The notes under the pieces are model-generated. The model was not told where the DNA came from. It did no database searches and worked only from the letters and a program-made list of their open reading frames with translations. From Escherichia coli (GTDB taxonomy: Bacteria; Pseudomonadota; Gammaproteobacteria; Enterobacterales; Enterobacteriaceae): a stretch of 64,000 nt of DNA. Positions 16,497-57,908 of the stretch are shown piece after piece (positions within the stretch are counted from its first letter, which is position 1; each line of letters starts with the position of its first letter). The position numbers were made by a program, and so were the translations under genes. The DNA is taken from the NCBI RefSeq assembly GCF_050920415.1, contig NZ_CP169309.1; one strand, written 5' to 3'.

Positions 16497-16498
16497 TT

Positions 16499-21700: not shown

Positions 21701-21751
21701 TTTCTTTTCTGTGTATCACCGTCATCATTCCCATCTGATAACCTATTGAAA

Positions 21752-23805: not shown

Positions 23806-23816
23806 AGAGACGTGAC

Positions 23817-24896: not shown

Positions 24897-24957
24897 AAAC
24901 GAAAAGTCTGATAAAAGCTATACTTATCGGATAGTATTCGCGACTTAGGAAAGGGAC

Positions 24958-27208: not shown

Positions 27209-27230
27209 GAGCGTTGTTAATTAGAAAGCA

Positions 27231-27258
27231 AAAAGCCTGCTCGAAAGCAGGCTTTTTT
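27231..27258. terminator. Hairpin terminator between ldtA and asnV
   Basis: aaaagcctgctcgaaagcaggctttttt. Confidence 0.75.
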
Positions 27259-27263
27259 GAATT

Positions 27264-27339
27264 TGGCTCCTCTGACTGGACTCGAACCAGTGACATACGG
27301 ATTAACAGTCCGCCGTTCTACCGACTGAACTACAGAGGA
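27264..27339 (-). tRNA. asnV: tRNA-Asn (GUU)
   Basis: 76 nt; reverse complement begins TCCTCTGTAGTTCAGTCGGTAGAACGGCGGACTGTTAATCC and ends ...GAGGAGCCA. Confidence 0.95.
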
Positions 27340-27592
27340 ATCGTGTGAACGGGGCGCATATTAATGGCAGTGCATGGTGATGTCAAAGGGTGAAATGCAT
27401 TTTTTTGTTTGTTTGCTGCCAATTTCGACAAAATGGTGAGCTTTCAATCTTTTTGGTAATGAACCATCGTGGTGCATACCTTTCTGTCTTGGGGCAGAGA
27501 ACGCGAGTTCTAATAAAAAGATCGAGTGACAAAACTATCATAATCTCTTATTTGACCGTTGGTTAGCTTGCATATCAACACAAAATTAAAAC

Positions 27593-27608
27593 TGGCAAGT
27601 ATCTTGCA
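27593..27608 (+). promoter_or_regulatory. Sigma-54 type promoter (-24 GG / -12 GC) upstream of nac
   Basis: TGGCAagtatcTTGCA with canonical GG-N10-GC spacing, about 55 bp upstream of nac ATG. Confidence 0.7.
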
Positions 27609-27663
27609 ATCTGGTTGTAAGTAATGGCGGCACTTGGGCCGATTCTTATAAACCGGAGGCAAC

Positions 27664-28581: not shown

Positions 28582-28682
28582 GCGTTATATCGGGATGGAA
28601 TAAGATGCGGGTTTTTATTATTTGTTATGCCGGGCATTAAACTTTAACAATAACGTGATATCTGAACTGCCCGGAGTTTACC

Positions 28683-29633
28683 GTGAATTTCCAACAACTA
28701 AAGATAATCCGCGAGGCTGCACGTCAGGATTACAACCTGACAGAGGTTGCGAATATGCTTTTTACCTCACAGTCAGGCGTCAGCCGTCACATTCGGGAAC
28801 TGGAGGATGAACTTGGCATCGAAATATTTGTTCGACGAGGTAAGCGACTGCTGGGCATGACTGAACCGGGCAAAGCATTACTGGTCATTGCAGAACGTAT
28901 TCTGAATGAAGCCAGTAATGTTCGTCGGCTTGCAGACCTGTTTACCAACGATACGTCTGGCGTTCTCACTATTGCAACGACGCATACTCAGGCACGTTAT
29001 AGCTTGCCTGAGGTCATTAAAGCTTTTCGCGAACTTTTCCCGGAGGTTCGGCTGGAGCTAATCCAGGGTACACCACAGGAAATTGCGACGTTGTTGCAAA
29101 ATGGCGAAGCTGATATTGGTATCGCCAGCGAGCGTTTAAGTAATGACCCGCAGCTCGTCGCCTTCCCGTGGTTTCGTTGGCACCATAGTTTGCTTGTTCC
29201 ACTCGATCATCCCTTGACGCAAATTATACCGTTGACGCTGGAATCAATAGCGAAGTGGCCGTTAATCACTTACCGACAGGGGATTACGGGGCGCTCACGT
29301 ATTGATGACGCATTTGTCCGCAAAGGTTTGCTGGCAGATATTGTATTAAGTGCGCAGGATTCTGATGTCATTAAAACCTATGTTGCACTCGGGCTGGGGA
29401 TTGGATTAGTTGCCGAACAATCCAGCGGTGAACAAGAGGAAAAGAATTTAATCCGTCTGGATACGCGGCATCTTTTCGATGCTAATACTGTCTGGTTGGG
29501 ACTCAAGCGAGGACAACTTCAGCGTAACTATGTCTGGCGCTTTCTGGAACTTTGTAATGCAGGACTGTCAGTTGAGGATATCAAGCGCCAGGTGATGGAG
29601 AACAGTGAAGAGGAAATTGATTATCAGATATAG
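28683..29633 (+). CDS. cbl: CysB-like LysR-family regulator of sulfonate utilisation
   Basis: 316 aa, MNFQQLKIIREAARQDYNLTEVANMLFTSQSGVSRHIRELE. Confidence 0.93.
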   Translation: MNFQQLKIIREAARQDYNLTEVANMLFTSQSGVSRHIRELEDELGIEIFVRRGKRLLGMTEPGKALLVIAERILNEASNVRRLADLFTNDTSGVLTIATTHTQARYSLPEVIKAFRELFPEVRLELIQGTPQEIATLLQNGEADIGIASERLSNDPQLVAFPWFRWHHSLLVPLDHPLTQIIPLTLESIAKWPLITYRQGITGRSRIDDAFVRKGLLADIVLSAQDSDVIKTYVALGLGIGLVAEQSSGEQEEKNLIRLDTRHLFDANTVWLGLKRGQLQRNYVWRFLELCNAGLSVEDIKRQVMENSEEEIDYQI

Positions 29634-29634
29634 C

Positions 29635-29663
29635 AAAAAGCCCGCTATAAAAGCGGGCTTTTC
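29635..29663. terminator. Hairpin terminator between cbl and asnU
   Basis: aaaaagcccgctataaaagcgggctttt. Confidence 0.75.
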
Positions 29664-29670
29664 AGAAATT

Positions 29671-29746
29671 TGGCTCCTCTGACTGGACTCGAACCAGTGA
29701 CATACGGATTAACAGTCCGCCGTTCTACCGACTGAACTACAGAGGA
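29671..29746 (-). tRNA. asnU: tRNA-Asn (GUU)
   Basis: 76 nt, identical tRNA-Asn sequence on minus strand. Confidence 0.95.
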
Positions 29747-29906
29747 ATCGCTGTTGAGGCACATCTTAACGGCGAAAAATCTTTTGTCAAACCCGATTTT
29801 TAAATTTCCCAACTGTTTGCCGTTTCTATCAACAGTTTGTTGCATTTGCAGACAATTTGTTGGCGAAAATCTTTGCAGCTTTGCTGATTCTCCCTCATCA
29901 TTTGAA

Positions 29907-31394
29907 ATGTGGTTTCACTTTTTGCAATTAAGGTCGGCTTTGAATATCTCCTCTGCTTTACGCCAGGTTGTTCACGGCACTCGCTGGCACGCCAAACGCA
30001 AGAGCTACAAGGTGTTGTTCTGGCGCGAGATAACCCCGCTTGCTGTTCCTATCTTCATGGAGAATGCCTGTGTCCTGTTGATGGGTGTTTTGAGTACTTT
30101 TCTGGTCAGCTGGCTGGGAAAAGATGCGATGGCCGGCGTGGGATTGGCGGACAGCTTCAATATGGTCATTATGGCTTTTTTTGCAGCTATCGATCTTGGT
30201 ACTACTGTCGTTGTGGCATTTAGTCTCGGTAAGCGGGATCGACGACGAGCGAGGGTGGCGACGCGGCAGTCATTGGTGATCATGACGTTGTTTGCCGTAC
30301 TGTTGGCAACGCTTATTCATCATTTTGGCGAACAAATTATTGATTTCGTCGCAGGTGATGCCACGACAGAAGTTAAAGCACTGGCGTTGACTTATCTGGA
30401 GCTGACGGTACTCAGTTATCCAGCAGCTGCCATCACTTTGATTGGTAGCGGGGCACTTCGTGGTGCAGGGAATACGAAAATACCGCTACTGATTAACGGT
30501 AGCCTGAATATTCTTAATATTATTATTAGCGGCATATTGATTTACGGCCTTTTCTCCTGGCCGGGACTGGGATTTATCGGGGCTGGGTTGGGGTTAACCA
30601 TTTCTCGTTATATTGGCGCAGTGGCAATTTTGTGGGTGCTGGCGATTGGTTTTAATCCTGCGCTAAGGATTTCGTTAAAGAGCTATTTTAAACCGCTGAA
30701 TTTTAGCATTATCTGGGAAGTCATGGGGATTGGCATTCCTGCGAGTGTCGAATCAGTATTATTTACCAGTGGTCGGTTATTAACCCAAATGTTCGTTGCC
30801 GGGATGGGGACCAGTGTTATTGCCGGGAATTTTATCGCGTTTTCAATTGCGGCTCTTATCAACTTACCCGGAAGTGCGCTCGGCTCTGCTTCTACAATCA
30901 TTACAGGCCGAAGGTTGGGGGTAGGGCAGATAGCGCAAGCAGAGATTCAGTTGCGGCATGTGTTCTGGCTGTCCACTCTTGGATTAACGGCCATCGCCTG
31001 GCTAACGGCTCCCTTTGCTGGGGTTATGGCATCGTTTTACACCCAGGATCCACAGGTTAAACATGTCGTTGTGATTCTGATTTGGCTAAATGCTTTATTT
31101 ATGCCTATTTGGTCTGCCTCATGGGTGCTACCCGCTGGATTTAAGGGGGCTCGCGATGCCCGTTACGCCATGTGGGTTTCTATGTTGAGCATGTGGGGTT
31201 GCCGGGTTGTAGTCGGTTATGTGCTGGGAATCATGCTTGGCTGGGGTGTGGTTGGTGTCTGGATGGGAATGTTTGCCGACTGGGCTGTGCGGGCCGTGCT
31301 GTTTTACTGGCGCATGGTTACTGGACGTTGGCTGTGGAAATACCCTAGACCTGAGCCGCAAAAGTGTGAAAAAAAGCCAGTTGTGTCGGAATAA
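29907..31394 (+). CDS. yeeO: MATE-family multidrug/flavin efflux transporter
   Basis: ORF 29754..31394 (546 aa); start placed at internal Met MWFHFLQ (495 aa); 12-TM MATE-like; start uncertain. Confidence 0.8.
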   Translation: MWFHFLQLRSALNISSALRQVVHGTRWHAKRKSYKVLFWREITPLAVPIFMENACVLLMGVLSTFLVSWLGKDAMAGVGLADSFNMVIMAFFAAIDLGTTVVVAFSLGKRDRRRARVATRQSLVIMTLFAVLLATLIHHFGEQIIDFVAGDATTEVKALALTYLELTVLSYPAAAITLIGSGALRGAGNTKIPLLINGSLNILNIIISGILIYGLFSWPGLGFIGAGLGLTISRYIGAVAILWVLAIGFNPALRISLKSYFKPLNFSIIWEVMGIGIPASVESVLFTSGRLLTQMFVAGMGTSVIAGNFIAFSIAALINLPGSALGSASTIITGRRLGVGQIAQAEIQLRHVFWLSTLGLTAIAWLTAPFAGVMASFYTQDPQVKHVVVILIWLNALFMPIWSASWVLPAGFKGARDARYAMWVSMLSMWGCRVVVGYVLGIMLGWGVVGVWMGMFADWAVRAVLFYWRMVTGRWLWKYPRPEPQKCEKKPVVSE

Positions 31395-31494
31395 ACGACA
31401 AAGTGCAGATTATTTCAGCAAACGATTTCAAATTTAAAAAACAGGCTTTGACATTAAGGATGGGCATCGCTAATATTCGCCTCGTTCTCACGAT

Positions 31495-31570
31495 TCCTCT
31501 GTAGTTCAGTCGGTAGAACGGCGGACTGTTAATCCGTATGTCACTGGTTCGAGTCCAGTCAGAGGAGCCA
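31495..31570 (+). tRNA. asnW: tRNA-Asn (GUU)
   Basis: TCCTCTGTAGTTCAGTCGGTAGAACGGCGGACTGTTAATCCGTATGTCACTGGTTCGAGTCCAGTCAGAGGAGCCA. Confidence 0.95.
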
Positions 31571-31577
31571 AATTTTA

Positions 31578-31607
31578 GTTTTGAGACATCTCTATAAGTC
31601 TCAAAAC
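31578..31607 (+). terminator. Hairpin terminator after asnW
   Basis: gttttgagacatctctataagtctcaaaac. Confidence 0.7.
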
Positions 31608-32023
31608 AGTTAAAAAATAAAAATTATTTTTACCCGGTTACTTTGTAAAAAAGTGACCGGGTTTTTTGATTTCTGTGTTTCGTGCGCTTAATCGAGTCTC
31701 ACGCTTCAGTGAGCAAATTGCCCCTCCCCAACAGACATCACGATTCGCAAGGTCAAAAACTCTGTTCCATGAAGTACCGTACAAAGATAAAGAGAAAAAT
31801 GCCTTATGCGGGATGTCGCTATCGCGTCTTTATCGGGAAACTATGCGTAATTGCCACTTTGCCTTCTGTAATCAGAAAAAGAAGAACTGGAATTTTAATA
31901 AATATTATTTCTCTGGGACCGGTATTTTTATAATCAATATGACGAGTTGAATATTATGTTTATTATAAGATTTATATGAAATTAAAGAAATCTGCCATAA
32001 AGACAGATTTCTTTAAAATATAA

Positions 32024-32740
32024 TTAGAGATTTGCGACGTTATGATAAACTTTTTGAACATCGTCGTCATCTTCAAGGGCATCAACAAGCCCTTCAAAGA
32101 TTTCTAAATCTTCTGGGGAAAGCTCAACTTCAGATTGAGCAATCATTTCTAATTCTGTTGTTGAGAACTCAGTGATTCCAGCTGCTTTTAGAGCCGCGAT
32201 TCCTTTATGAAGGTCAGTTGGTTCAGTATAAATAACAATGTTACCTTCTTCTTCGGTCACATCGCGAACATCAACTTCAGCTTCAAGCAAAATTTCAAAA
32301 ATATGGTCCGGGTCTGTCCCTTTAAATACAATCACACCCGTATTGTCAAACATATAGCTGACAGAACCTGCCGCTCCGATATTGCCACCTTTTTTATTGA
32401 AAATTGTGCGAACGTTAGCAATTGTACGGTTAACATTGGAAGTCAATGTCTCGGCGATAATCATTGAGCCATTTGGACCAAAGCCTTCATAACGTCCCTG
32501 CACGAACGTTTCATCTCCGCCGCCTTTGGCTTTATCAATTGCTTTATCAATAACGTGCTTTGGAACTTGTGCCTGCTTCGCACGTTCAATAACGAATTTT
32601 AAAGATGTGTTTAATTCTGGATCGGGTTCACCTTGTTTGGCAGCAGCATAGATTTCTACACCGAATTTTGCATAAATTTTAGACGTTGCACCGTCTTTAG
32701 CCGTTTTTTTAGCAACAATATTGGCCCATTTACGTCCCAC
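32024..32740 (-). CDS. yeeN: YebC/PmpR-family probable transcriptional regulator
   Basis: 238 aa, [27 protein letters not shown]. Confidence 0.9.
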
Positions 32741-33081
32741 TGGAATGATCTCCTCGAAAATTTATTTACATTACTGGTAAATCGTTAACATGCGTTAATT
32801 CGACATATTATATCATAACAGGAAAAATCTCGTCTATTAGAAATAAAAATATTCTAAATCCATAATCTTATATTTAATCTCATAAAAACTAATGTTGTTG
32901 GCGGATTTTTTTATAATTGTGTTTTGAAAGCATACTTGCTTTTAATATATGGAAATCATTAAGGCTATAATAAAACTTGTATCCGCCCCAGGAAGCAAAC
33001 AGCCTGCTTTATTGCAGGCTATTTGCTGGATGACTTACTAAATCCTTCACATCTATTCCTGATAAAAAGGAACAGAACTTA

Positions 33082-34536
33082 TTACCGGAACGGCGGTTCA
33101 TTAAAGGTTCGTAATTTACGTGAATGCAGTCGGTCGCCTTCTGCGCGCAGCAAATCGATCGCACGAATGCCAATTTGCAGGTGTTCGGAAATAGCGCCTT
33201 CATAAAAACGGTTAGCCTGACCGGGAAGTTTAATCTCACCATGCAACGGTTTATCTGAAACACACAGTAGTGTCCCGTATGGCACGCGGAAACGATATCC
33301 TTGCGCGGCAATAGTTGCACTTTCCATATCAATTGCTACGGCCCGGCTTAAGTTAAAACGAAGTGCAGAAGCTGAGTAACGTAATTCCCAGTTCCTGTCA
33401 TCTGTGGTTACCACAGTGCCAGTACGTAGCCGCTGTTTAACTTCCTCTCCGGGCCTGCCGCTGACTAACTTGGTAGCGTCATAAAGCGCACGTTGCACTT
33501 CAGCAATGCTCGGAATAGGAATATCGGGCGGCAGTACCGCATCAAGAACGTGGTCATCGCGTAAATAAGCGTGTGCAAGTACATAATCTCCAATGGCCTG
33601 GCTTTCACGTAAGCCACCACAGTGACCAATCATCAACCAGACATCCGGGCGCAGCACCGCCAGATGATCGCAGATGGTTTTAGCATTTGACGGTCCCACG
33701 CCAATATTCACCAGAGTAATACCCTGACCATCGGCGGTAATTAAATGCCATGCTGGCATCTGGTGTTTTTTCCATGCAAGGTCGGAAATGGCTTCTTCTG
33801 GCGCTTCGGTTTCGGCGGTGATCCAGTTCCCGCCAGCACAAGAAAGGGCAATGTAGGGACTATCAGGGTCGAGGATCTGGCTGCATCCCCAACGAACGAA
33901 TTCATCCACATAACGTGTGTAGTTGGTAAACAAGACGAACGGCTGAAAATGTTCAACTGGCGTACCGGTATAATGGCGCAACCGCGCGAGGGAGAAATCG
34001 ACGCGGCGCGCATCAAAATGCGATAGCGGGGAGAATTCAGTTGGATGATAAATGCCGTCTGCAGTTTCATCGCCAATTTGCGCCAGTTCTGTTGTCGGGA
34101 AGTAGCGAGTTAACCCAGCGCTCATTGAGCGATCAAGTGTCAATTCAGAGCCATCGATGACATAAGGATAAGGGATTTCATGCTGCGAGGGTTGCACCGA
34201 GATATGCGCACCATAATCCTGATACAGCAACGTAAGTTGTTCATTCAGATACGAACGAAAGAGAGTAGGGCGAGTAATCGTGGTGGTGTAGCTGCCTGCG
34301 TGAGTAAAACGACCAAATGCGCGCGTTTTGGGGGGATTTGTTGTGCTACCGTCCCAGGTTACGGTCAGTGATGGATAGACAAAAAGACCTTCTTTACGGG
34401 CATTTTCATCAGGTAATTCGCCACTTTTAATATAGTTGCCAATGGCATTGCGTAAAGCGACTACAGATTGCTCATACAGCGCGTCGAGTTTTTCCAGTGC
34501 CTGAGCTGGGGTCAGACCGGAGCCCTTATTATTCAT
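33082..34536 (-). CDS. amn: AMP nucleosidase
   Basis: ORF 33082..34692; start at MNNKGSGLTPAQALEKLDALYEQS, 484 aa. Confidence 0.93.
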   Translation of the reverse strand: MNNKGSGLTPAQALEKLDALYEQSVVALRNAIGNYIKSGELPDENARKEGLFVYPSLTVTWDGSTTNPPKTRAFGRFTHAGSYTTTITRPTLFRSYLNEQLTLLYQDYGAHISVQPSQHEIPYPYVIDGSELTLDRSMSAGLTRYFPTTELAQIGDETADGIYHPTEFSPLSHFDARRVDFSLARLRHYTGTPVEHFQPFVLFTNYTRYVDEFVRWGCSQILDPDSPYIALSCAGGNWITAETEAPEEAISDLAWKKHQMPAWHLITADGQGITLVNIGVGPSNAKTICDHLAVLRPDVWLMIGHCGGLRESQAIGDYVLAHAYLRDDHVLDAVLPPDIPIPSIAEVQRALYDATKLVSGRPGEEVKQRLRTGTVVTTDDRNWELRYSASALRFNLSRAVAIDMESATIAAQGYRFRVPYGTLLCVSDKPLHGEIKLPGQANRFYEGAISEHLQIGIRAIDLLRAEGDRLHSRKLRTFNEPPFR

Positions 34537-36259: not shown

Positions 36260-37330
36260 ATGTTTTTAGCATCATTGTTGAGACGTATTGCATTTAGTTA
36301 CTACGATTATAAAGCTAATAATTTCAATATTGAAAAAACAGAGTTTGTTGTCATCCATATTCCCGATCAGATTGGCGATGCTATGGCTATCTTTCCAGTG
36401 ATTCGGGCGCTTGAATTGCATAAAATCAAGCATCTTTTAATTGTTACTTCGACAATTAATTTAGAAGTCTTTAATGCGCTCAAACTTGAACATACTAAAT
36501 TAACATTAGTCACAATGACTATGCAGGATCACGCAACATTAAAAGAAATAAAAGATTTAGCGAAGAACATAACACAGCGATACGGTACGCCGGATCTTTG
36601 TATAGAGGCGATGCGTAAAAAGAACCTGAAAACGATGTTATTTATCAGTCAGTTGAAAGCAAAAACGAATTTTCAGGTTGTCGGTTTAACCATGAAGTGC
36701 TATTCCCCTTTGTGTAAGAACGCCTCCCGGATGGATCAACATCTCCGGGCTCCCGTACCCATGACATGGGCGTTTATGATGCGTGAAGCGGGTTTTCCTG
36801 CAGTCAGGCCAATATATGAATTACCATTAAGCGAGCAGGTAATAAATGAAGTACGTGAGGAATTGTGCACTTTAGGATCTTACATTGCGCTTAATTTAGA
36901 TGGCAGCGTGCAGGAACGCACATTTTCGTTATCAGTAGCTGAGAAACTCATCGCCAAAATTCAAAGTGATAATGATATGCCAATAGTCATTGTTCATGGA
37001 CCAAAAGGGGAAGATAAAGCCCGGAAATTAGCGGGTTGTTATAATAATGTCTACCGGCTATCCTTATCACCCTCGATTAAACGTTCAGCAGCAATCATAA
37101 AAGATGCTTATATCGCAATAACCCCTGATACCTCAATATTACATATGGCAAGTGCCTATAATACCCCCGTCGTTGCAATTTATGCTGATTACAAAACGCG
37201 GTGGCCTGCGATGGCAGATATCTCGGAGTCAGTGGTCGTTGGGCAAAAAATTGATCATATAAGTTTGGATGAATTCGGAAAGGCGCTAAAAAGTGCTTTG
37301 GAGAGAGTATGTGTCAGTACTTACGTATAG
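36260..37330 (+). CDS. yeeL: Glycosyltransferase family 9 (heptosyltransferase-like) protein, apparently intact
   Basis: ORF 36197..37330; start at MFLASLL with GGAGG RBS; C-terminal ...ITPDTSILHMASAYNTPVVAIYADY... typical of GT9. Confidence 0.7.
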   Translation: MFLASLLRRIAFSYYDYKANNFNIEKTEFVVIHIPDQIGDAMAIFPVIRALELHKIKHLLIVTSTINLEVFNALKLEHTKLTLVTMTMQDHATLKEIKDLAKNITQRYGTPDLCIEAMRKKNLKTMLFISQLKAKTNFQVVGLTMKCYSPLCKNASRMDQHLRAPVPMTWAFMMREAGFPAVRPIYELPLSEQVINEVREELCTLGSYIALNLDGSVQERTFSLSVAEKLIAKIQSDNDMPIVIVHGPKGEDKARKLAGCYNNVYRLSLSPSIKRSAAIIKDAYIAITPDTSILHMASAYNTPVVAIYADYKTRWPAMADISESVVVGQKIDHISLDEFGKALKSALERVCVSTYV

Positions 37331-37706: not shown

Positions 37707-45695
<7,989 letters not shown>

Positions 45696-46107
45696 GCTTA
45701 CCTTCCCTGAACGAGCTAACATAAATGCGCCCTTTCTAGCACAGCGAAAAAATATAAATCCTGATAGCAATATGATTGAAAATTAATAACTTTTCGTTAA
45801 GCAGTTTTGGGTGTGAGTTGCAAGAGGGGAGACTACTGAATAACTCAGTTTAATAATTGAGGGGGCAATGGTGACGAATATAGGGACGGAGTAGAGAAGA
45901 TAGTGCTGAACTCTTTGCCAGCAGAAGGTTATGTGGCACAAAAATAACCGTAACTTCTCACTCTCGACAGGAAAGCTGTAGACGGCGTCCATAACAAAAC
46001 GCCCCCAACCATAAGGTCGAGGGCGCTTAAGATGACAAACCCGCTCTTCGTTAAAGAATCAATGCTTAATGTAGATGAGTTGCATTGCACGATAAAAGCG
46101 AATTTTT

Positions 46108-46129
46108 AGAATTTGGCTCCTCTGACTGG
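46108..46129. repeat. 21-bp direct repeat of the 3' end of tRNA-Asn (distal att site of the islet)
   Basis: gaatttggctcctctgactgg is identical to 54382..54402 (3' end of asnT plus 5 bp). Confidence 0.85.
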
Positions 46130-46462
46130 GATCGCCGTAGCCATTAACAGGCTGATTGGTAAAGCTAAAAAAATTTGAGTTTGTCAAGACCACCAGAATG
46201 ACCACCATTTTAAAGTAACATTTGAAGTTTACTCAGTAGCACCTTTAGCTTCACTTACAATCAATTAACCTGTGAAGATAGCTGTACCTACAATCGCAAT
46301 AACTTATTACAGATCCGACGACAAACATCACCTGTTATCCACTCTGGCACTACCGTGCATGATAATCAATAAGTCGGGTGCTGGCTTGCAAGGCAATTGC
46401 GTTGTAATGTACCAAATCCCAGTTCGCCTTCACTCTAAAATGCCCCGACGTTTCGAACGCGT

Positions 46463-47341
46463 TTACGGTAAATAATGCGTGACAATCTGCAGGAACTCAT
46501 CCCGCATCTGGTTGTCGATTTTCGGATTCCATGCCACACCAATGTTCCATATGATCTGCTTTCCCCACAGAGTAATCAGCTTGACTCCTACAGGTAAAAA
46601 ATTCTCGACGCTGGCGGGTAGCAGCGCGAGACCATTCCCTCCGGCTATCAATGCTAGCAGGGAATGAATATCATTCGTCGCAGAGATTGGCTCAATGATG
46701 AGTTCATTATCCCGCAGGAACGCAGTCGTTTGCTCCGCCAGACAAGGGCTGACCGCTGGATCCATGCATAAAATCGGATAGATTGCCAGCGTACGCTGGA
46801 GATCGGTGGGATCAATATCGACGGCTACCGGGACAGCCAACACCAGATTTTCTTTATTTATTAAGCGAGAGGCCAATAATTCTGTTACCGGCATACGAAC
46901 AAAACCAGCATGCAGTTCACCTTCCATCAACATCCTAGCTTGTACGCTGGAGGCAATTTGGCTGATAACAACGTCGCAGTCGGGAAATTTCTGGCGAAAA
47001 GTGTTAATCCAAACTGGTGTGCTTTTAAACGAAGATATACCAAATCCGAGCACCAGTTTACCCGTACTCCCCTTTTGGATTTCTCTGGCGTAGGTTAAAA
47101 AATCGTGGTGGGATTTCAGCAACTCATAAGCTTTAGCAAACAACTGCCTGCCAACCATCGTCAACACTGCCCCGTGGCGACCACGCAGGAAAAGCTGCCC
47201 TCCGGTCTTCTGTTCGAGCATCTTGATCTGCTTTGAAAGCGCAGGTTGTGTCAGAAATAAAGCTTCTGCAGCTTTATTGTAGTTTCCCTTTTCCGCCAGT
47301 GTCACAAATGCACGCAGCAGCCTTATATCTATTCCTGACAT
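46463..47341 (-). CDS. LysR-family transcriptional regulator (islet-encoded, divergent from the operon)
   Basis: 292 aa, N-terminal HTH IRLLRAFVTLAEKGNYNKAAEALFLTQPALSKQIKMLE. Confidence 0.85.
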   Translation of the reverse strand: MSGIDIRLLRAFVTLAEKGNYNKAAEALFLTQPALSKQIKMLEQKTGGQLFLRGRHGAVLTMVGRQLFAKAYELLKSHHDFLTYAREIQKGSTGKLVLGFGISSFKSTPVWINTFRQKFPDCDVVISQIASSVQARMLMEGELHAGFVRMPVTELLASRLINKENLVLAVPVAVDIDPTDLQRTLAIYPILCMDPAVSPCLAEQTTAFLRDNELIIEPISATNDIHSLLALIAGGNGLALLPASVENFLPVGVKLITLWGKQIIWNIGVAWNPKIDNQMRDEFLQIVTHYLP

Positions 47342-47567
47342 TTATTGAATCCTGAAAAATTGGAATTATACAAATACTCGCAACAGATGACATGATGCGT
47401 AAAATGATTTACGCCGAGATCCCCTTGGTTTGTCAAACTCAGAAACGCCATACCTGCTGCTCTTGGTTCTATTTAACACTCACTAATGCGCAGGTTATTT
47501 ATAAAAATTGACCTCATAAATCATTCAAAAACATTAATTATATAAATACAATAAGGATTAAATATTT
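47342..47567. promoter_or_regulatory. Divergent promoter/operator region between the LysR gene and the isochorismatase-hypEF operon
   Basis: 226-bp AT-rich intergenic region between divergent starts; classic LysR arrangement; no specific site mapped. Confidence 0.5.
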
Positions 47568-48167
47568 ATGCCAAATATTGCCGTTCTCACTAATGACCTG
47601 CAGTATGAGTTTACCTACAAAATAACACGCTCTCCAGAAATTCTGGCGCAAAAACTCGTCCAGTTTAATCAGTTTCTCGATGGCATTCGCGCTCTGGATC
47701 AATCCATTATCCACCTGCAACTTATCAACGATCCTAATGACCCGGCGGTACAAAAGCGCTATCGCAACCGCGAAGCGGGCATTCCTGCACTAGCTGGTCG
47801 CCCGGAAAACCAGATTATCGATAAAGTATACCGCCCCACAGATCTGGTTGTAGTCAAGGGCAGAGACAGCGGTTTTTTTAATAACGATCTCGACGAAATC
47901 CTCCAGCAACTCGGGGTAAAAACCGTAATCGTTACCGGGTTGCAAACTCATGTTTGCGTGCAGACCACTGCAGCGGATGCCTTCTTTCGCGGCTATAACG
48001 TCTGGGTACCGGGCGACTGCGTGTTCGCTCCTTCGTCCGAAGATACAGAGCGTGCACTCGAGTGGCTTGCCAGCTATTGCGCAACTGTAGCACCTTCTGC
48101 GGAAATTTTATCAATATTGCAAAAACAGAACGATCTGCCTGAGCGCGGCGAAAGGGAAGCATCATGA
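47568..48167 (+). CDS. Isochorismatase-family cysteine hydrolase
   Basis: 199 aa; ...VTGLQTHVCVQTTAADAF... matches the catalytic Cys region of the isochorismatase/CSHase/nicotinamidase family. Confidence 0.75.
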   Translation: MPNIAVLTNDLQYEFTYKITRSPEILAQKLVQFNQFLDGIRALDQSIIHLQLINDPNDPAVQKRYRNREAGIPALAGRPENQIIDKVYRPTDLVVVKGRDSGFFNNDLDEILQQLGVKTVIVTGLQTHVCVQTTAADAFFRGYNVWVPGDCVFAPSSEDTERALEWLASYCATVAPSAEILSILQKQNDLPERGEREAS

Positions 48168-49195
48168 GCTTAACCCAGACGCTAAATCATGAAGAGGTCG
48201 TTGTACTGGATCATGGCACCGGGGCGAAATTAAGCCGCGAGTTGGTTGAAAAAATTGCTAGCATTCTCGGTGACACCTATCTGGGCGTGATGGAAGATAG
48301 CGCGGTGCTGGGGTTATCCACCAGGCGAATTGCCTTCACCACCGACTCCTTTGTTGCCACGCCGCTGATTTTCGGCAACGGTGATATTGGCAAAATCGCC
48401 GTATGCGGCACCGTTAACGATCTCGCTGTCAGTGGGGCTCGTCCCCTTTACATCACACTCAGTCTTATTATTGAGGAAGGTATGCCGATGGCTGATCTGG
48501 TCAGAATCATCGAGTCCGTACGTGAAACGGCTCGTGAGGCAGAGGTCAAGATTGTCGCTGGTGATACCAAGGTCGTAGGTAAAGGTGAAGCAGATCGGCT
48601 GTTTATCAATACTGCTGGCATCGGCGTGTTTGAACATCCGCCAGTCTCAGTTAAGAACGTGCGTCCGGGGCAGAAAATAATCCTGAGCGGATATATCGGC
48701 AATCACTCGATTCACCTGCTGTCGATGCGGGAAGGATTGGGGTTCGAGCGAAATATTCTTAGTGATTGCGCACCGCTGAACCACATTATTGACAAACTTA
48801 TCAGCAACATCCCTGAAGGCAAAATAGCGTCAATGCGAGACGTTACGCGCGGTGGGCTGTCCGCTGTTTTACACGAACATGCGCGCGCAACAAATTATCA
48901 GATTCATTTCGACCAGCCATCTTTGCCCATACAGCCGGAAACCGCCATGGCAGCTAATATGCTGGGTGTTGACGTCATTAATCTCGCTAATGAAGGTTGT
49001 TTGTGCCTGTTTGTTGAACCTGAGTATGCTCAGAAGGTACTACATTTGCTGCAGGAGCATCCTGTCGGCAAGCACGCGACAATTATCGGCGAGATCACCG
49101 CTGTCTCGGGTACTGAAGTCTATATGATTGAAGCTGATGGAACACACACAGAAGTCGAGGAATTATATGGCGCAGAATTACCCAGACTCTGTTGA
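48164..49195 (+). CDS. HypE-like protein (PurM superfamily; carbamoyl dehydratase / thiocyanate-forming type) with C-terminal Cys
   Basis: 343 aa; ...DTKVV.KG.ADRLFINTAG.G... and C-terminus ...ELPRLC resembling HypE PRIC; ATGA overlap with upstream gene. Confidence 0.8.
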   Translation: MSLTQTLNHEEVVVLDHGTGAKLSRELVEKIASILGDTYLGVMEDSAVLGLSTRRIAFTTDSFVATPLIFGNGDIGKIAVCGTVNDLAVSGARPLYITLSLIIEEGMPMADLVRIIESVRETAREAEVKIVAGDTKVVGKGEADRLFINTAGIGVFEHPPVSVKNVRPGQKIILSGYIGNHSIHLLSMREGLGFERNILSDCAPLNHIIDKLISNIPEGKIASMRDVTRGGLSAVLHEHARATNYQIHFDQPSLPIQPETAMAANMLGVDVINLANEGCLCLFVEPEYAQKVLHLLQEHPVGKHATIIGEITAVSGTEVYMIEADGTHTEVEELYGAELPRLC

Positions 49196-51545
49196 GCTTC
49201 ACGAGACGCCGGAAACCCGGCGTTACCGCATCTGTGGGGTCGTTCAGGGCGTTGGATTTCGTCCCTTTGTTCACCGACTGGCCCGCACCTATGGTGCCAC
49301 CGGCTGGGTGTTAAACGATTCAGAAGGCGTGTTGCTTGAGCTGCAGGCATCCGGCACGGTTATTGCCAGAATCATGGACAAACTGGTGACCGAGGCACCA
49401 CCACTGGCAAAAATCATCAGTACGCAGGAAGTTAGCCCAACGGATACCAGAGCGCACTATGAAACGTTCAGCATCCGTAAAAGCCGCGATCATACCAGCA
49501 TGGACACGATTATCCCGCCAGATACCAACGTCTGCAGCGATTGCCTGCGCGAGATAAGCGATCCTGATAATCATCGTTATCGTTACGCTTTCACCAATTG
49601 CACCAATTGTGGGCCGCGCTATTCCATTATTCTTGGTATGCCTTACGATCGTGCCCAGAGCACTATGCGTAAATTCCCTTTATGTCCAACCTGTGAGCGT
49701 GAATACAACGATATTGAGGATCGACGCTATCATGCCCAGCCCAATGCCTGCCCAGTTTGCGGCCCACAGTTGCAACTTACCGATCGACAGGGCACATCCG
49801 TTCACACAGATGATATTGTCAAATTTGCCATTACGAAACTAAAAGAAGGCGGAATTCTTGCAATAAAGAGCCTTGGTGGCTTTCATCTCGTGGCCGATGC
49901 TTGCAATGAGAATGCTGTCAATGAACTTCGGCAACGCAAGCGAAGAGACGCCAAACCTTTTGCAGTGATGGTCGCGGATGTGGAAAGCGCGTCGCGTATT
50001 GCTTTCATCCCCCCCTGTAATCACAAATTGCTGGAAAGCCCGCAGCGTCCCATTGTCTTGTTGTATAAGCGCAACGTCCTGCTGGCGAGTACCGTTGCGC
50101 CACATAATCCGAACATCGGTGTAATGCTGCCTTCAACGCCGCTTCAGCATTTATTGCTGGAAGACCCGTCTCTGCCGATCCTGATTATGACCAGCGGTAA
50201 TATTTCCGGTCATCCGATCGTCTTTGACAACGACATGGCAATTAAGCAACTCGGGAAAATCGCGGATTACTTCATTCTGAATAATCGCGATATTCATACG
50301 CGTGTTGACGATTCGGTGGTCCGCACGGTGTTTCTCAACGACGCCATTACCTCGCAGCTATCGTTTTTGCGCCGCTCCCGCGGTTACGCGCCATACCCTA
50401 TTCATCTACCTTACGCAGTGGATTCCGTTATCGCGCTCGGGGCGGAGCTAAAAAACACGATCAGCATCGGCAAAGGAAAACAGGTTTTTCTGAGCCAGCA
50501 TATTGGCGATCTTAAGAATAACGTGACTTTTAAATCACATATCGAATGTATTGATCATCTTCAAAACCTGCTGAACGTGAAGGCAAATGTCGTGGCCTGC
50601 GATTTGCATCCCTCTTTCCGCTCTACCCGGCATGCGCTGGAGAATTTAGAGCATCAGGTTGTTCAGGTTCAACACCATCACGCGCATATGGCATCCTGCA
50701 TGGCGGAAAATGGCCTGTCAGGTACTACTCTAGGCGTAATTTTTGACGGTACAGGATATGGCACCGACGGCACCATTTGGGGCGGTGAGTTTCTCGTTGG
50801 TGATTTCGAAAAATTCGAGCGTGCAGGATGCTTGCGTTCAATGACCCTGCCCGGAGGCGATCGGGCAGTTAAAGAGCCGCTGCGCGTCGGCATCTCCTTA
50901 CTGGTGGAAACCTTCGGCGAAGATATCAGTACGCTCGCAGTACCAGGCTTGCAGGCGCTCCAGCCTCAGCAGCGCGATATATTCAGTAAAATGGCGACCA
51001 GAAAAATCAACACCACCACGACCAGCAGCATGGGCAGACTATTTGACGGCATCGCCGCGCTGATGGGCGTTTGCACTCAGGTGGAGTACGAAGCCCAGGC
51101 GGCCATTGAACTGGAAGCGCTGCTGCAGTGTAAACTTCATATGACGGCTCCGTTCAGCTACATCATTGCCGATGTCGAGAATAAGCTCGAGGTGGATTAT
51201 CGCCCGATGATAAGGGAACTGGTGCAATGCTTCAGCCAGCCCGGTTTTGATATGGCCGAACTAAGTCGGCGCTTTCACTCTACCATCGTCGACATGATTT
51301 GCGAGGTCTGTAAACGTCTGGTGGCACGCTCAGGCACGCAACAAATTGTCCTGAGCGGCGGCGTGTTCTGCAATGAATTCATCCTCGTTAATTCTCTTAA
51401 CAGTCTGGAGTCTTGTGGATTCCGGCCTTACAGCCATCAGTTAGTTCCGACTAACGATGGTGGTATTTCATTGGGGCAAGTGGTTATTGCTACCGCATAC
51501 ACTCGCGCAACGCGCAATAAAAATCTGGAGAGAGAAAATGCATAG
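49167..51545 (+). CDS. HypF-like carbamoyltransferase (acylphosphatase, two CxxC-N18-CxxC Zn fingers, YrdC-like and Kae1-like domains)
   Basis: ORF 49128..51545; start at ATG 49167 with GAGG RBS; VQGVGFRPFV acylphosphatase motif; CSDC...CTNCGPR and CPTC...CPVCGP fingers; HHHAH in the C-terminal domain. Confidence 0.82.
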   Translation: MAQNYPDSVELHETPETRRYRICGVVQGVGFRPFVHRLARTYGATGWVLNDSEGVLLELQASGTVIARIMDKLVTEAPPLAKIISTQEVSPTDTRAHYETFSIRKSRDHTSMDTIIPPDTNVCSDCLREISDPDNHRYRYAFTNCTNCGPRYSIILGMPYDRAQSTMRKFPLCPTCEREYNDIEDRRYHAQPNACPVCGPQLQLTDRQGTSVHTDDIVKFAITKLKEGGILAIKSLGGFHLVADACNENAVNELRQRKRRDAKPFAVMVADVESASRIAFIPPCNHKLLESPQRPIVLLYKRNVLLASTVAPHNPNIGVMLPSTPLQHLLLEDPSLPILIMTSGNISGHPIVFDNDMAIKQLGKIADYFILNNRDIHTRVDDSVVRTVFLNDAITSQLSFLRRSRGYAPYPIHLPYAVDSVIALGAELKNTISIGKGKQVFLSQHIGDLKNNVTFKSHIECIDHLQNLLNVKANVVACDLHPSFRSTRHALENLEHQVVQVQHHHAHMASCMAENGLSGTTLGVIFDGTGYGTDGTIWGGEFLVGDFEKFERAGCLRSMTLPGGDRAVKEPLRVGISLLVETFGEDISTLAVPGLQALQPQQRDIFSKMATRKINTTTTSSMGRLFDGIAALMGVCTQVEYEAQAAIELEALLQCKLHMTAPFSYIIADVENKLEVDYRPMIRELVQCFSQPGFDMAELSRRFHSTIVDMICEVCKRLVARSGTQQIVLSGGVFCNEFILVNSLNSLESCGFRPYSHQLVPTNDGGISLGQVVIATAYTRATRNKNLERENA

Positions 51546-52278
51546 TTCTGCGAACCGTATTGCCGCTGTTTTATTCGATATGGATGGTGTCCTTATTGAT
51601 TCCAATGCGGTGATTGAGCGCGGCTGGGCTGAAGGCGCACAGATGTTTGGCAAGACGCTAACGGAAGAGGATATCGTCAGGCATATTCACGGACAGCCCG
51701 GCCCGCATACCATTCGCGCCCTGTTCAGCGACCTTTCCCTGGAAGATCAAAAGAAGGTCCAGTCACATATCATCCACGTTGAAAATACCGCTGATTACGA
51801 CCCGATCCCTGGAGTTAGCGAACTTATCCAGGCGTTGCATAAGGCTGGCATCAGTGTGGGGATTGTCACTAGCGGCTGGCGGTCGAAAATCGATCGTATT
51901 ATGGAGATGCTGCAAATCACGCCCTGTATTTCAGTGATTGTCGAACGTGATGATGTCGTGCGCGGCAAGCCTTATCCCGATCCTTATCTGCTTGCCGCAG
52001 AGCGGTTTCATCTTGCACCGTCCAGAACACTGGTCTTTGAGGATTCAAGAAGCGGCGTAACATCTGCTGTTACAGCAGGCGCAATTTGTGTTGGCATCGG
52101 TACAGACAGTCTGAAAGAGTGCGGTGCCGTGCTTGCAATTACAGATTTTCGTAATGTGAAAATCACCTCACAGACAGGCGAAAAAGTAGTGATTGCCTTT
52201 ACTCCAGAGCACCAGATGGAGATGGAAACTCAGAGCTCTCGTAAGAAAACATCCTGTACCACAAGAGAAGAGTGCTAA
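51538..52278 (+). CDS. HAD-superfamily hydrolase (subfamily IA, phosphatase/beta-phosphoglucomutase-like)
   Basis: ORF 51457..52278; start at MHSSANRIAAVLFDMDGVLIDS (DxDG motif), overlapping the hypF-like stop. Confidence 0.75.
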   Translation: MHSSANRIAAVLFDMDGVLIDSNAVIERGWAEGAQMFGKTLTEEDIVRHIHGQPGPHTIRALFSDLSLEDQKKVQSHIIHVENTADYDPIPGVSELIQALHKAGISVGIVTSGWRSKIDRIMEMLQITPCISVIVERDDVVRGKPYPDPYLLAAERFHLAPSRTLVFEDSRSGVTSAVTAGAICVGIGTDSLKECGAVLAITDFRNVKITSQTGEKVVIAFTPEHQMEMETQSSRKKTSCTTREEC

Positions 52279-53471
52279 TGAATATCACACAGAAGGGACG
52301 CTGGGCTGTCACTATGCTATTTTTTATCAATGGCTTCGTCACCGGAGGTTGGGCTGTGCAAATTGCACAGCTTGTACCACGCTTTGGCGTGACCGACAAA
52401 GTGATCGGCCATTTAATTCTGATCTTCGGATTCGGTGCACTAACCATGATGCCCATATCAGGCATTCTGATGGAAAAGATGGGGACACAAATCGTAACGC
52501 GTATTTTTGCCCTTGCAGCCTCCCTGGCATTAATTCCGGTTGGTTTAGCCACCACCCCATTAGTGTTGATGCCAGCGTTATTTGTTCTTGGTGCGATGAT
52601 TGGTGCCATGAATGTAGCGATGAACTCGAATGCCGTGGCGGTGGAGAGATCACTCTCACAAGCGATTTTATCCTCCTGCCATTGCTTCTGGAGTATCGGC
52701 CTATTTGCGGCGGGCTCGATAGGCGGCCATCTTGTTGAACAATTTGGCTTTTTGACGCATATCTTTTTGATTAGTGCCGTGGCCTTAATACTGACGCTGA
52801 TTATCGCTCCGGCCATTTTTAAAGACATACAGACGGTTAAATCCACCAGCAGACAGACCACCCGGTTGCCTCGTTCTCCGGCGATTTATCTGATTGGATT
52901 GATGGCTTTTCTGGCCATGATCCCTGAATGCGCTGTTGTTGACTGGTCGTCACGCTATTTGATTAAAAATCTCAATGCAAAAACAGAAATCGCCAGCCTT
53001 GCCTTCGCCTGCTTTGCTGTAGCAATGGCCTTGTTTCGCTTTATGGGTGACGTGATCCGCAACCGCTTCGGCGCAATATTAATTATACGAATCTCCAGCT
53101 TACTGGCAGGCGCTAGCCTATTGTTGAGCGCACTGGCACACAATCCCTGGCAGGCGATCTGCGCATTTACCTTAGCGGGAATCGGCATCGCCAACCTTGT
53201 GCCCATTGTCTTTTCCGCAGCGGGAAATCAGCCCAATATTTCCACCAACACAGGAATGAGCATTGCCACAACCATTGGGTATTTAGGCACGCTAATGGCC
53301 CCTGCGCCTATTGGCTATATTGCGGAAATAACCGGTTTTCCAGTGGTTTATTGCGGACTAGCTTTCATGTCGGGAATTATCTTTTTGCTGGCACCACTGG
53401 TTCGGGGGGCAGAAATCTCTGTACAGCGGCAGCGAGCCTCAAACAAACACCAGAATACCGGAGCGTTGTAA
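52272..53471 (+). CDS. MFS transporter
   Basis: 399 aa, about 12 predicted TM segments; start overlaps the HAD stop (GTG 52272 or ATG 52278). Confidence 0.75.
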   Translation: MLMNITQKGRWAVTMLFFINGFVTGGWAVQIAQLVPRFGVTDKVIGHLILIFGFGALTMMPISGILMEKMGTQIVTRIFALAASLALIPVGLATTPLVLMPALFVLGAMIGAMNVAMNSNAVAVERSLSQAILSSCHCFWSIGLFAAGSIGGHLVEQFGFLTHIFLISAVALILTLIIAPAIFKDIQTVKSTSRQTTRLPRSPAIYLIGLMAFLAMIPECAVVDWSSRYLIKNLNAKTEIASLAFACFAVAMALFRFMGDVIRNRFGAILIIRISSLLAGASLLLSALAHNPWQAICAFTLAGIGIANLVPIVFSAAGNQPNISTNTGMSIATTIGYLGTLMAPAPIGYIAEITGFPVVYCGLAFMSGIIFLLAPLVRGAEISVQRQRASNKHQNTGAL

Positions 53472-54027
53472 TTTCTGCCTGGCAAATACTGTGAAACGCT
53501 GACGCAAATTTTACTTTCCTGCGTATTGTCATCACAGGCCGTACAGACAGTGCGCGGTCTGTTGGCGGATCTGCCTGGTATTTTGCCGATGAACTGAGGG
53601 CGTCCTGCGGGATACGTATCGCCAGGGGCGTGAAACTAATTGATGAGGTGGCGGCATGATGCCGGCGGACTAGCATATCTGCCTTTCGCCGCCTGACATG
53701 TCCTTTGGGGCCGCTGTCAGTTCAGAGTAAAGGAGAAAAAGATCGATACCGAGGGGGGGCACGACGCCCCGGAGACACCCCTGTTTCGTCAGACAGTCTG
53801 TACCGCGTACAGCCTGAAACTCCCTAAACCTCAACAAACTGCCACTTCGACGTGAAGGTATCGTTCTGGCGCAGCCAAAAAGCACATGCCGGAGACTGTT
53901 TTTTTGGTTGTAGAGGGTAGTCATGAGCAAATTAAGTAGTGAAATGAAGGCCCTGACGAAGAAAGCAGGCGGCAGCTTCAAAACGGTAAATGACCGTATC
54001 CATATTACAAAACGGTTCAGTGAGCAT

Positions 54028-54225
54028 TTACGCGAACTGAACATCCAGATCCGGCGGGTATGCGCCAAGACTGACTCTGGATTCTTTTCCGTTGAAACGA
54101 TATTTGAGATACCAGATGCGTGAACCGCCCGGATTGACGAGCAGATACAGACCGTGAGAGTCGGAGAGTTTTACCGGACGGGAAGAGGTTTTTAACTTGC
54201 GGATTTTAGAATCGTTTAAAGACAT
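54028..54225 (-). pseudogene. P4-type tyrosine integrase, N-terminal remnant only
   Basis: MSLNDSKIRKLKTSSRPVKLSDSHGLYLLVNPGGSRIWYLKYRFNGKESRVSLGAYP matches the N-terminal arm-binding region of tRNA-associated island integrases, then terminates prematurely. Confidence 0.65.
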
Positions 54226-54386
54226 TTGGGGGTCACTCCAGAATCGAACCAAACTGACCCCAGATCTGACCACCAAATTATCCCGATGCGGAGAGAAAAC
54301 CAGATACGCACCGGGGAGGATTTTCACGCTAACTTACTGAACCGTAAACAAATAGAGATGTACAGATAAGCATGAAAACTTGAATT

Positions 54387-54462
54387 TGGCTCCTCTGACT
54401 GGACTCGAACCAGTGACATACGGATTAACAGTCCGCCGTTCTACCGACTGAACTACAGAGGA
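54387..54462 (-). tRNA. asnT: tRNA-Asn (GUU)
   Basis: 76 nt, identical tRNA-Asn sequence; sits between mtfA and the islet/yeeJ. Confidence 0.93.
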
Positions 54463-57652: not shown

Positions 57653-57844
57653 AACAGTTTCCTCCAGAGTTATTGTACATGACGTGTTATGTTATATTGT
57701 AACATATGACGAAATGCAATAACTCTTAGGAAACAAGAGCATAGTTTTCTCAGGTGTATTTACCTATCTTATTGAAATGAAATAAATTATGTCGATGATT
57801 TGAGGTTGATGACAAACGAAACATAACTTGATGCGATCTGTGTG

Positions 57845-57878
57845 GGCCGGATAAGGCGCTCACACCGCATCCGGCAGG
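57845..57878. repeat. REP element
   Basis: gggccggataaggcgctcacaccgcatccggcag. Confidence 0.6.
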
Positions 57879-57908
57879 GATAACGCGTACTTTGTCGGCA
57901 ATATGAAG

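Follow-up and report, generated by a model that had tools for sequence, protein, structure and literature searches.

The stretch of DNA analysed here (hereafter the window; 64,000 nt of Escherichia coli GCF_050920415.1, contig NZ_CP169309.1) carries, at the 3' end of the tRNA-Asn gene asnT, an islet that very probably is what remains, in decayed form, of an integrative element of ~12 kb, and whose cargo operon opens with genes for an isochorismatase-family cysteine hydrolase and for paralogues of HypE and HypF. These three genes recur together, apart from hydrogenase genes, in distant phyla, and we read them, with more doubt than confidence, as the E. coli representative of a widespread, hydrogenase-independent cassette that would hand a C-N unit to amines (i.e., N-cyanation, urea or guanidine formation). 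Taking insertion, decay and cargo together, we give the favoured explanation as a whole a probability of roughly 0.8. As a mobile element, the islet is a new, rare and dead member of the asn-tRNA islands whose integrase is of the class known from the Yersinia high-pathogenicity island (HPI), that is, one more rare, decayed member of a well-known group of E. coli islands; its cargo matters more, being a new variant of the HypEF system without a known product.

An islet inserted at the 3' end of asnT

The insertion is delimited by a 21-mer, GAATTTGGCTCCTCTGACTGG, which occurs exactly at both ends of the islet (chance expectation, 0.00; Table 1), comprises the 3'-terminal 16 nt of tRNA-Asn together with 5 flanking bp, and does not extend on either side; the DNA inserted between the two attachment (att) cores amounts to 8,273 bp. 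ARAGORN calls five tRNAs in the window, among them the asnT tRNA at one end of the islet and three further asn tRNAs beginning at 27264, 29671 and 31495. The remaining matches to the repeat are the 3' ends of these three other asn tRNAs (exact at 27259, one mismatch each at 29666 and 31555), and the copy at 46109 is thus the sole one without an attached tRNA. In the K-12-type genome (L002), 313 bp separate yeeJ from asnT, and in a three-way alignment the left junction of the islet tracks K-12 through the core while the right junction tracks K-12 from the core onward. A 331-bp probe spanning the unoccupied site, scored when contiguous, detected the empty site in 2,681 of the 5,426 complete E. 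coli genomes on which all population counts given here are based. The interpretation that an earlier note, made from the sequence alone, had proposed for this place stood up in each of its elements: an intact tRNA-Asn on the minus strand, an exact repeat made of the last 16 tRNA nucleotides plus 5 flanking bp, a K-12 spacing of about 0.3 kb, an occupied integration site, and a truncated P4-type integrase beside the tRNA, which is a 57-codon N-terminal fragment of P4/HPI type. The start of the distal copy, given there as 46108, was off by one, and a 46-codon remnant of a second integrase-like gene, an EFASI RNA and two internal deletion scars had escaped the note.

The decay of the islet is apparent from a copy of the same element at a different tRNA. 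In strain Z1323HEC0462 (L016), the cargo is 99.5% identical and lies at asnV, beside nac, within a ~12-kb unit made up of an att core (one mismatch), the six cargo genes, a helix-turn-helix pseudogene, a small open reading frame (ORF), an 885-bp Integrase_1-type gene, a 1.26-kb frameshifted P4-type integrase gene and the tRNA; strain NY1601 appears to match. The left boundary at asnV is the same att-core boundary as that of the window islet. By blastn, window positions 46103-53683 correspond to 25295-32877 of this copy (99.5%), the next block starting again at 33610, with window positions 53684-54059 corresponding to 33610-33984; at the second scar, ~2.9 kb are absent relative to the asnV copy, comprising most of both integrase genes. 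No functional integrase is present beside the tRNA, where the remaining 57 of 420 codons correspond to residues 1-57 of the integrase of strain 2023CK-01509 (L099). Since so little of the gene is left, the islet is predicted, going by its gene content, to be immobile and incapable of excising by itself. The sampled asnT copies are collinear over the same two scars, and the decay therefore occurred once, with later inheritance or movement together with the flanks. The sequence of events that we propose is that integration reconstituted the tRNA and left the 21-bp core duplicated at both ends, that two later internal deletions (~0.73 kb and ~2.9 kb) would have taken most of the integrase and of the second integrase-like gene, and that the islet may now be passed on vertically or be carried with its flanks by homologous recombination.

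The EFASI RNA is complete (model positions 1-133 of 133) and lies between the two scars, just upstream of the truncated Integrase_1-type gene, and in the asnV copy (33664-33792) it has the corresponding place, a short way upstream of the Integrase_1 gene. EFASI has been described before as a motif with no known function that is typically found upstream of integrase genes. No STAXI motif was found near it. A full-length relative of the second integrase-like gene (14241-15125 in the 2023CK-01509 locus) matches PF12834 and PF12835. At the opposite end, the recurrence of the ~85 bp next to the distal core fits a shared island terminus, which may carry recombinase arm sites. The near-full-length relative of the P4-type integrase, which lies at asnT in 2023CK-01509 with RHS cargo, has the Arm-DNA-bind_3, Phage_int_M and Phage_integrase domains and shares 70% identity (416 aa, ungapped) with the genuine HPI integrase of CU532-9 (L102), so that, judged by sequence, it belongs to the same subfamily as the HPI integrase and is not the same gene. 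At asnW and asnT, AR13438 (L003) and 2023CK-01509 combine the same integrase backbone with cargo of quite another kind (RHS/PAAR toxin genes, radical-SAM genes).

Among the known systems closest to the islet is the HPI. Like the HPI, it targets the asnT 3' end with the integrase directly beside the tRNA, its family encodes an integrase of 420 aa (70% identity), and its core contains CCAGTCAGAGGAGCCAA, which is also present at the asnT tRNA 3' end beside the HPI integrase. Unlike the HPI, for which a true example in CU532-9 was used for comparison, the islet is without ybt, irp and fyuA, has lost its integrase and not its distal repeat, is very rare (16 genomes) and is small (~8 kb vs. roughly at least 30 kb). 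The islet also resembles the E. coli HPI in having been immobilised by a deletion and in probably being spread through recombination of the flanking DNA (PMC2606025). A ROD21-like (EARL) island as known from Enterobacteriaceae (PMC6035254) was also considered and rejected: a ROD21 probe made of attL, the integrase promoter and the first 82 nt of the integrase gene matches only 20-27 nt of the tRNA end in the window, Z1323HEC0462 and AR13438. EARL repeats are 24-37 bp long, start with GTTCGAGT... or GTTCGAGTCCAGTC... and begin 8 nt deeper in the tRNA, whereas the islet repeat is 21 bp long and starts with CCAGTC, the 8 nt upstream not being repeated; further, neither the islet nor its 12-kb asnV version has recombination directionality factor, H-NS-like or relaxase/transfer genes.

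A count of carriers shows that the block is not present in essentially all E. coli. The cargo (probe, window positions 46130-53700) was found in 16 of the 5,426 genomes (0.3%), in 15 of them at full length with 99.1-100% identity and in one, WL297 (L012), partially; to judge from query coverage, the copies divide into 14 of asnT type and two of asnV type. No match was found by megablast among 72,556 plasmids. Outside E. coli, the homologue in Raoultella terrigena (L018) shares 88% nucleotide identity over its first 2.4 kb and begins exactly at the att core, while in Citrobacter (L005) and a metagenome-assembled genome (MAG) of Enterobacteriaceae the cluster (~68% nucleotide identity) lies directly against a tRNA-Asn 3' end, oriented as in the window, with no integrase and no distal repeat. 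Even a degenerate attR (up to 7 mismatches) was not found beside the Citrobacter, Buttiauxella and Lonsdalea clusters, and no tRNA lies within 10 kb of the clusters of Escherichia strain E1V33, Buttiauxella, Lonsdalea and Trinickia. The cluster is thus an old one in the Enterobacterales, with repeated links to asn tRNA genes, and the islet shows how a set of genes that in Citrobacter lies beside tRNA-Asn can move from genus to genus on an element with an HPI-type integrase.

Two observations on the asn tRNAs themselves may be added. The att core is also carried by the other three asn tRNAs of the window (27259-27279, 29666-29686 and 31555-31575; one exact including the 5-bp flank), all of them unoccupied here, with neither an HPI nor a pks island; they represent potential secondary sites, and two other strains (Z1323HEC0462 and, apparently, NY1601) have the element at asnV. 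In Z1323HEC0462, two phosphotransferase system (PTS) sugar modules (with rpe, a short-chain dehydrogenase/reductase (SDR) gene and hxlB; 15979-25247) lie between ldtA and the internal att core. A second att core beyond these modules was not found; that the PTS module left of the asnV copy could be the Raoultella flank was rejected for lack of similarity.

A hydrolase-HypE-HypF cassette as cargo

The six cargo genes listed in the earlier note (LysR regulator, isochorismatase-like hydrolase, HypE-like, HypF-like, HAD hydrolase and MFS transporter) agree with the ORF listing, the RefSeq annotation of an identical copy and the NCBIfam scans, and its remark that they belong to neither the HPI nor pks is borne out by the gene content of the islet. 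All six are intact in the window, with start and stop codons checked, and the five genes of the operon overlap by 4 nt (hydrolase/hypE), 29 nt (hypE/hypF), 8 nt (hypF/HAD) and 1 nt (HAD/MFS). The divergent LysR gene is co-conserved with the cluster in Enterobacterales, and the HAD gene only in Enterobacterales, Trinickia and one delta-proteobacterial MAG. Promoter-like matches numbered 8 vs. 10.4 expected, and with promoter and terminator counts not above the shuffled expectation these were uninformative; no riboswitch reached its Rfam gathering score in the window, where only EFASI and the tRNAs reach theirs. None of the six cargo proteins had a PADLOC match to anti-phage defence systems.

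The hydrolase, which serves as the marker of the cassette, has an Asp10-Lys97-Cys130 triad that is invariant in an alignment of 16 sequences (49-83% identity) and that aligns to the catalytic positions of solved family members. It falls below every NCBIfam equivalog cut-off, its best matches being RutB, BiuH and PncA, and assignment to a characterised subfamily (RutB, BiuH, PncA or YcaC) was rejected at a top score of 53.7 bits vs. a cut-off of 378. The named proteins nearest to it (RutB, biuret hydrolase and an N-carbamoylsarcosine-amidase-related structure) have ureido or carbamoyl substrates. The HypE paralogue aligns end to end with solved HypE structures, terminal cysteine included, and shares 39% identity with K-12 HypE vs. 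55-80% with cassette HypEs of other phyla. The HypF paralogue is likewise 39% identical to K-12 HypF over its full length, including all four domains, and retains GVGFRPF, both CxxC...CxxC pairs, KPFAVM and HHHAH. Because canonical hypE is core in E. coli (5,423 of 5,426 genomes), the islet hypE is an extra paralogue. Among named families, the HAD protein scores best against a sugar phosphatase, the beta-PGM family and a HAD-type pyrophosphatase, in each case below cut-off.

As a unit, the first three genes are conserved far beyond E. coli. Homologues of the hydrolase (43-95% identity) occur in Enterobacterales, Burkholderiales, Sorangium, many actinomycetes, Bacillus/Cohnella, Photobacterium and Psychromonas, and a scan of one-genome-per-species contigs returned 235 hydrolase relatives. 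Both HypE and HypF are encoded beside the hydrolase in 64 of the 69 bacterial loci fetched for linkage, with hydrolase-HypE-HypF as the gene order in nearly every case. Of the remaining five loci, four run into a contig end or have one partner, and only Gilliamella is clearly without both. In contrast to canonical HypE and HypF, the cassette proteins are linked to the cysteine hydrolase and not to hypABCD or hydrogenase genes: within 10 kb, HypA, HypB, HypC, HypD and a HycE-type large subunit are absent from all 80 cassette loci examined for such neighbours, and the islet has none of them either.

The cassette HypEs also stand apart in sequence. In a search of 1.84 billion representatives they form one cluster that extends to 60% identity and 439 bits, followed by a gap to 323 bits; beyond the gap come three HypE-like proteins at 47-49% identity and then the canonical HypEs, which end in PRIC, at no more than 45%. 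The tail of the cassette proteins is instead ELPRLC (51 of 52 cassette HypEs). Two of the three intermediates end in PRLC and are encoded in the order HypF-hydrolase-HypE beside a DegT aminotransferase (L100, 2457-6472; L101, 5041-9017), and these two loci are a sister clade that keeps the trio in a different gene order. The association of the three proteins survives a change of gene order and of phylum. A related HypE-like representative, P0124, ends in PRLG and is without the terminal cysteine. The islet proteins share the domain architectures, the signature motifs and the C-terminal cysteine of canonical HypE and HypF and score above their equivalog cut-offs, and the carbamoylation-dehydration chemistry is, by these sequence features, probably the same. 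Orthology with the bona fide maturation proteins was rejected, given 39% identity and a separate cluster with a score gap.

The neighbours of the cassette vary by lineage. ORFs in high-GC loci were called with a filter on GC content at third codon positions (GC3), and the counts of neighbour families are approximate; a diaminobutyrate transaminase was found in 12 loci. Other sets comprise a DegT/DesI-type sugar aminotransferase accompanied by an SDR and by a small protein without a family match that we take to be Nudix-like, a serine hydroxymethyltransferase/threonine-transaldolase-like enzyme with non-ribosomal peptide synthetase (NRPS) modules, and ATP-grasp ligases with an M20 peptidase, while in Sorangium the cassette neighbours a 4,160-aa NRPS and an ABC exporter. 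Orphan hypE and hypF genes beside an ATP-grasp ligase in Streptomyces clusters have been said to have probably 'adopted a novel function' (decRiPPter, PMC7794033), and this remark was all that a literature search on the function of orphan HypE/HypF together with an isochorismatase-family protein returned, subscription journals being mostly outside the search. Those genes, with their ATP-grasp neighbour and no other hyp genes, probably represent the same cassette; the decRiPPter paper (PMC7794033) makes no mention of the hydrolase partner, of an enterobacterial version or of a function, and the E. coli version has HAD, MFS and LysR genes in place of the ligases.

Table 1. Features of the islet and of its insertion site, in window coordinates; protein cut-offs are those of NCBIfam and gathering scores those of Rfam.
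Feature	Positions	Strand	Basis and remarks
Distal att core (attR), orphan 21-bp copy	46109..46129		Exact match; K-12 empty-site alignment turns from flank to island exactly here
Island terminus beside attR	46130..46215		~85 bp recur at 88.6% identity in ~30 other E. coli, next to other asn-tRNA islands; 83-91% copies in AR13438 (L003)
LysR-family regulator, 292 aa, divergent from operon	46463..47341	minus	WP_000014150.1; NCBIfam LysR matches only, all below equivalog cut-offs
Divergent intergenic region, presumed promoter/operator	47342..47567		Position alone
Isochorismatase-family cysteine hydrolase, 199 aa, first operon gene	47568..48167	plus	PF00857 on all homologues
HypE paralogue, 343 aa, PurM-like carbamoyl dehydratase, ends ELPRLC	48164..49195	plus	TIGR02124, 415 bits vs. 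cut-off 251.6
HypF paralogue, 792 aa: acylphosphatase, two zinc fingers, YrdC-like, Kae1-like	49167..51545	plus	TIGR00143, 788 bits vs. cut-off 466
HAD-IA family phosphatase, 246 aa	51538..52278	plus	TIGR01509, above cut-off
MFS transporter, 397 aa, last operon gene	52278..53471	plus	ORF and annotation; NCBIfam MFS matches weak
Backbone remnant to deletion scar 1 (53683/53684 junction)	53472..53683		blastn; ~0.73 kb of asnV copy gone
EFASI RNA (RF02957), complete	53738-53867	plus	90.1 bits vs. gathering score 51.2; E = 1e-17
Second integrase-like gene, first 46 codons, cut at deletion scar 2	53923-54060	plus	Annotated pseudogene; Phage_int_SAM_2 and Integrase_1 type
P4/HPI-type tyrosine integrase, codons 1-57 of 420 (Arm DNA-binding domain only), dead	54055-54225	minus	ORF translation MSLNDSKIRKLK...SLGAYP
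Proximal att core (attL), overlaps tRNA 3' end	54382..54402		Exact match; empty-site alignment
tRNA-Asn(GTT), intact, asnT position	54387..54462	minus	ARAGORN; Rfam tRNA, 72.6 bits; neighbours mtfA and tRNA-Ser(CGA); between yeeJ side and mtfA-serU

Proposed chemistry and alternative explanations

To our knowledge, the sole biological role of HypF and HypE is to supply the cyanide ligands of [NiFe]-hydrogenases. A HypEF clade that is coupled to a hydrolase, stands apart from hydrogenase genes and recurs in biosynthetic clusters indicates that this chemistry is reused elsewhere. Based on the established HypF/HypE mechanism and the motifs retained, the HypF paralogue would convert carbamoyl phosphate to carbamoyl-AMP and then carbamoylate the C-terminal Cys343 of the HypE paralogue, which in turn would carry out the ATP-dependent dehydration to a protein-bound thiocyanate. 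The iron scaffold of HypC and HypD being absent, the Asp-Lys-Cys hydrolase could accept or release the C-N unit and pass it to a small-molecule acceptor, probably an amine. The frequent amine-forming neighbour genes suggest an amine as the acceptor, speculatively giving a cyanamide and then a urea or guanidine; equally speculatively, the HAD and MFS genes of the Enterobacterales hint at a phosphorylated intermediate, and in the enterobacterial version the HAD enzyme would dephosphorylate the product (or, alternatively, remove pyrophosphate) and the MFS pump would export it. Our view that the cargo transfers a carbamoyl or cyano group to a metabolite is correspondingly tentative, every step of it being inferred, and so is the suggestion that the intermediate in the amine-transfer scheme might be a protein-bound thiocyanate or thiocarbamate. 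A partial parallel exists in the TobZ/NodU-type YrdC/Kae1 carbamoyltransferases, which make carbamoyl-AMP from carbamoyl phosphate in biosynthetic clusters, as proposed for the cassette; those enzymes carbamoylate small molecules directly, without a HypE-like dehydratase, zinc-finger and acylphosphatase domains or a protein-bound intermediate.

Several points weigh against this explanation. Neither a published function nor an experiment was found that would back the chemistry, the candidate roles of the hydrolase (acceptor, releaser, carbamate supplier or proofreader) are guesses, and the enterobacterial version has no aminotransferase or ligase that would point to an acceptor. On the side of the mobile element, composition gives no signal of foreign origin: in the comparison of the islet with its flanks that the earlier note had suggested, GC content does not mark the islet (49.1% vs. 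47.7% for the rest of the window), and the GC3 of its genes (0.50-0.56) mostly stays within the span seen in the flanking genes, which hypF (0.555) slightly exceeds. Related integrases at asnV, asnW and asnT have frameshifts or stops, and all those examined in E. coli are pseudogenes, so that recent activity of the element family is undocumented. The cluster itself decays frequently: the hydrolase gene is broken in AST85, WL297 has a 5' deletion, hypF is split in Citrobacter, Gilliamella is without hypEF, and in Raoultella terrigena the similarity to hypE ends after about codon 112 and hypE is interrupted. Such recurrent decay across taxa argues for weak or conditional selection. Finally, hypF of R32_14_1F (L015, 6038-8416) differs from that of the window by 0 synonymous and 6 non-synonymous changes, the other cargo genes differing mostly by synonymous ones.

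Alternatively, the extra HypE and HypF might be spare or condition-specific maturation factors that feed cyanide to the host HypCD and its [NiFe]-hydrogenases, both of which an E. coli host possesses. Consistent with this hypothesis, the two proteins pass the NCBIfam HypE and HypF equivalog cut-offs and keep the catalytic motifs and the terminal cysteine. However, they are closer to cassette proteins of distant phyla (55-80% identity) than to those of their own host (39%), 0 of 80 cassette loci adjoin hypABCD or a large-subunit gene, the coupling to the cysteine hydrolase persists under altered gene order, the cassette is embedded in NRPS, ATP-grasp and aminotransferase clusters, and the invariant ELPRLC tail is distinct; hence, we consider a role in hydrogenase maturation unlikely. 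To a similar degree improbable is a catabolic or detoxifying operon, in which, for instance, the MFS protein would take up a ureido, carbamoyl or cyano compound for breakdown, with the hydrolase as the key amidase. The ureido and carbamoyl substrates of the nearest named relatives of the hydrolase, as well as the typically catabolic layout of a LysR gene, a transporter and hydrolases, speak for catabolism, but HypF and HypE spend ATP to make a carbamoyl or cyano group and not to degrade it, other phyla have the trio within biosynthetic clusters, and the matches of the hydrolase are far below the equivalog cut-offs.

Less probable still is that the islet is a functionless relic, with the cargo heading to pseudogenisation and inactive in this strain. 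Its mobility genes are destroyed, several copies in E. coli and other genera are disrupted and only 0.3% of complete genomes carry it, all of which would be expected of a relic, yet in the window all six genes are intact and their starts and stops are coupled, conservation across phyla is strong at the protein level (hydrolase, 49-83% identity), and synonymous codon differences outnumber non-synonymous ones among the E. coli copies (20:14, 19:8 and 15:5), an excess consistent with purifying selection. That the block is ancestral in E. coli and was lost from K-12-like strains, the 21-bp repeat being an incidental tRNA fragment, would agree with a GC content indistinguishable from the surroundings but is already contradicted by a precise and common empty site, by integrase remnants adjoining the tRNA, by the occurrence of this unit, bounded by the same core, at a second tRNA (asnV) and by a Raoultella homologue with the same att-core boundary.

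If the reading as a C-N-transferring cassette holds and the product bears a cyano, cyanamide, urea or guanidine group, the cassette would represent a new biosynthetic route, and the E. coli carriers would be a tractable host for a new enzymatic cyano- or carbamoyl-transfer. The islet-bearing E. coli, or the operon cloned as a 6-kb fragment, would offer the easiest system in which to learn what the cassette does.

The flanks of the islet

The genes around the islet are those of the usual asnT neighbourhood: one flank has his, sbcB, cobUST, ldtA, nac, cbl, yeeO, amn and shiA as well as a yeeJ-like gene, and the opposite flank has mtfA, serU, yodB, zinT and msrQP. The gene at the yeeJ position (37707-45695, minus strand) encodes a 2,662-aa allele with Ig-like domains and is annotated differently from K-12 yeeJ, and an intact family-9 glycosyltransferase gene (36260-37330, plus strand) lies between it and shiA. 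Two features of other strains are not found in the window, namely an island at tRNA-Ser (serU) with DUF6387, H-NS-family and NACHT or RepL genes (WL297, 12884-16762; CU532-9, 8744-14187), and, in MFDS1022581 (L011), whose islet is 100% identical, an IS2 between zinT and msrQ (3884-5112; corresponding to 57653-57908 of the window).

Beside asnV, ldtA (erfK; ~24958-27208) is interrupted by an IS3-family element (orfA, 25695-26021; orfB, 26021-26908). Upstream of cobU, at ~21750-22390, the annotation of a near-identical record indicates pseudogene fragments of a microcompartment gene (EutP/PduV-type) and of a cobalamin-biosynthesis gene, and a full pdu/pocR region is present at the corresponding place in Z1323HEC0462.

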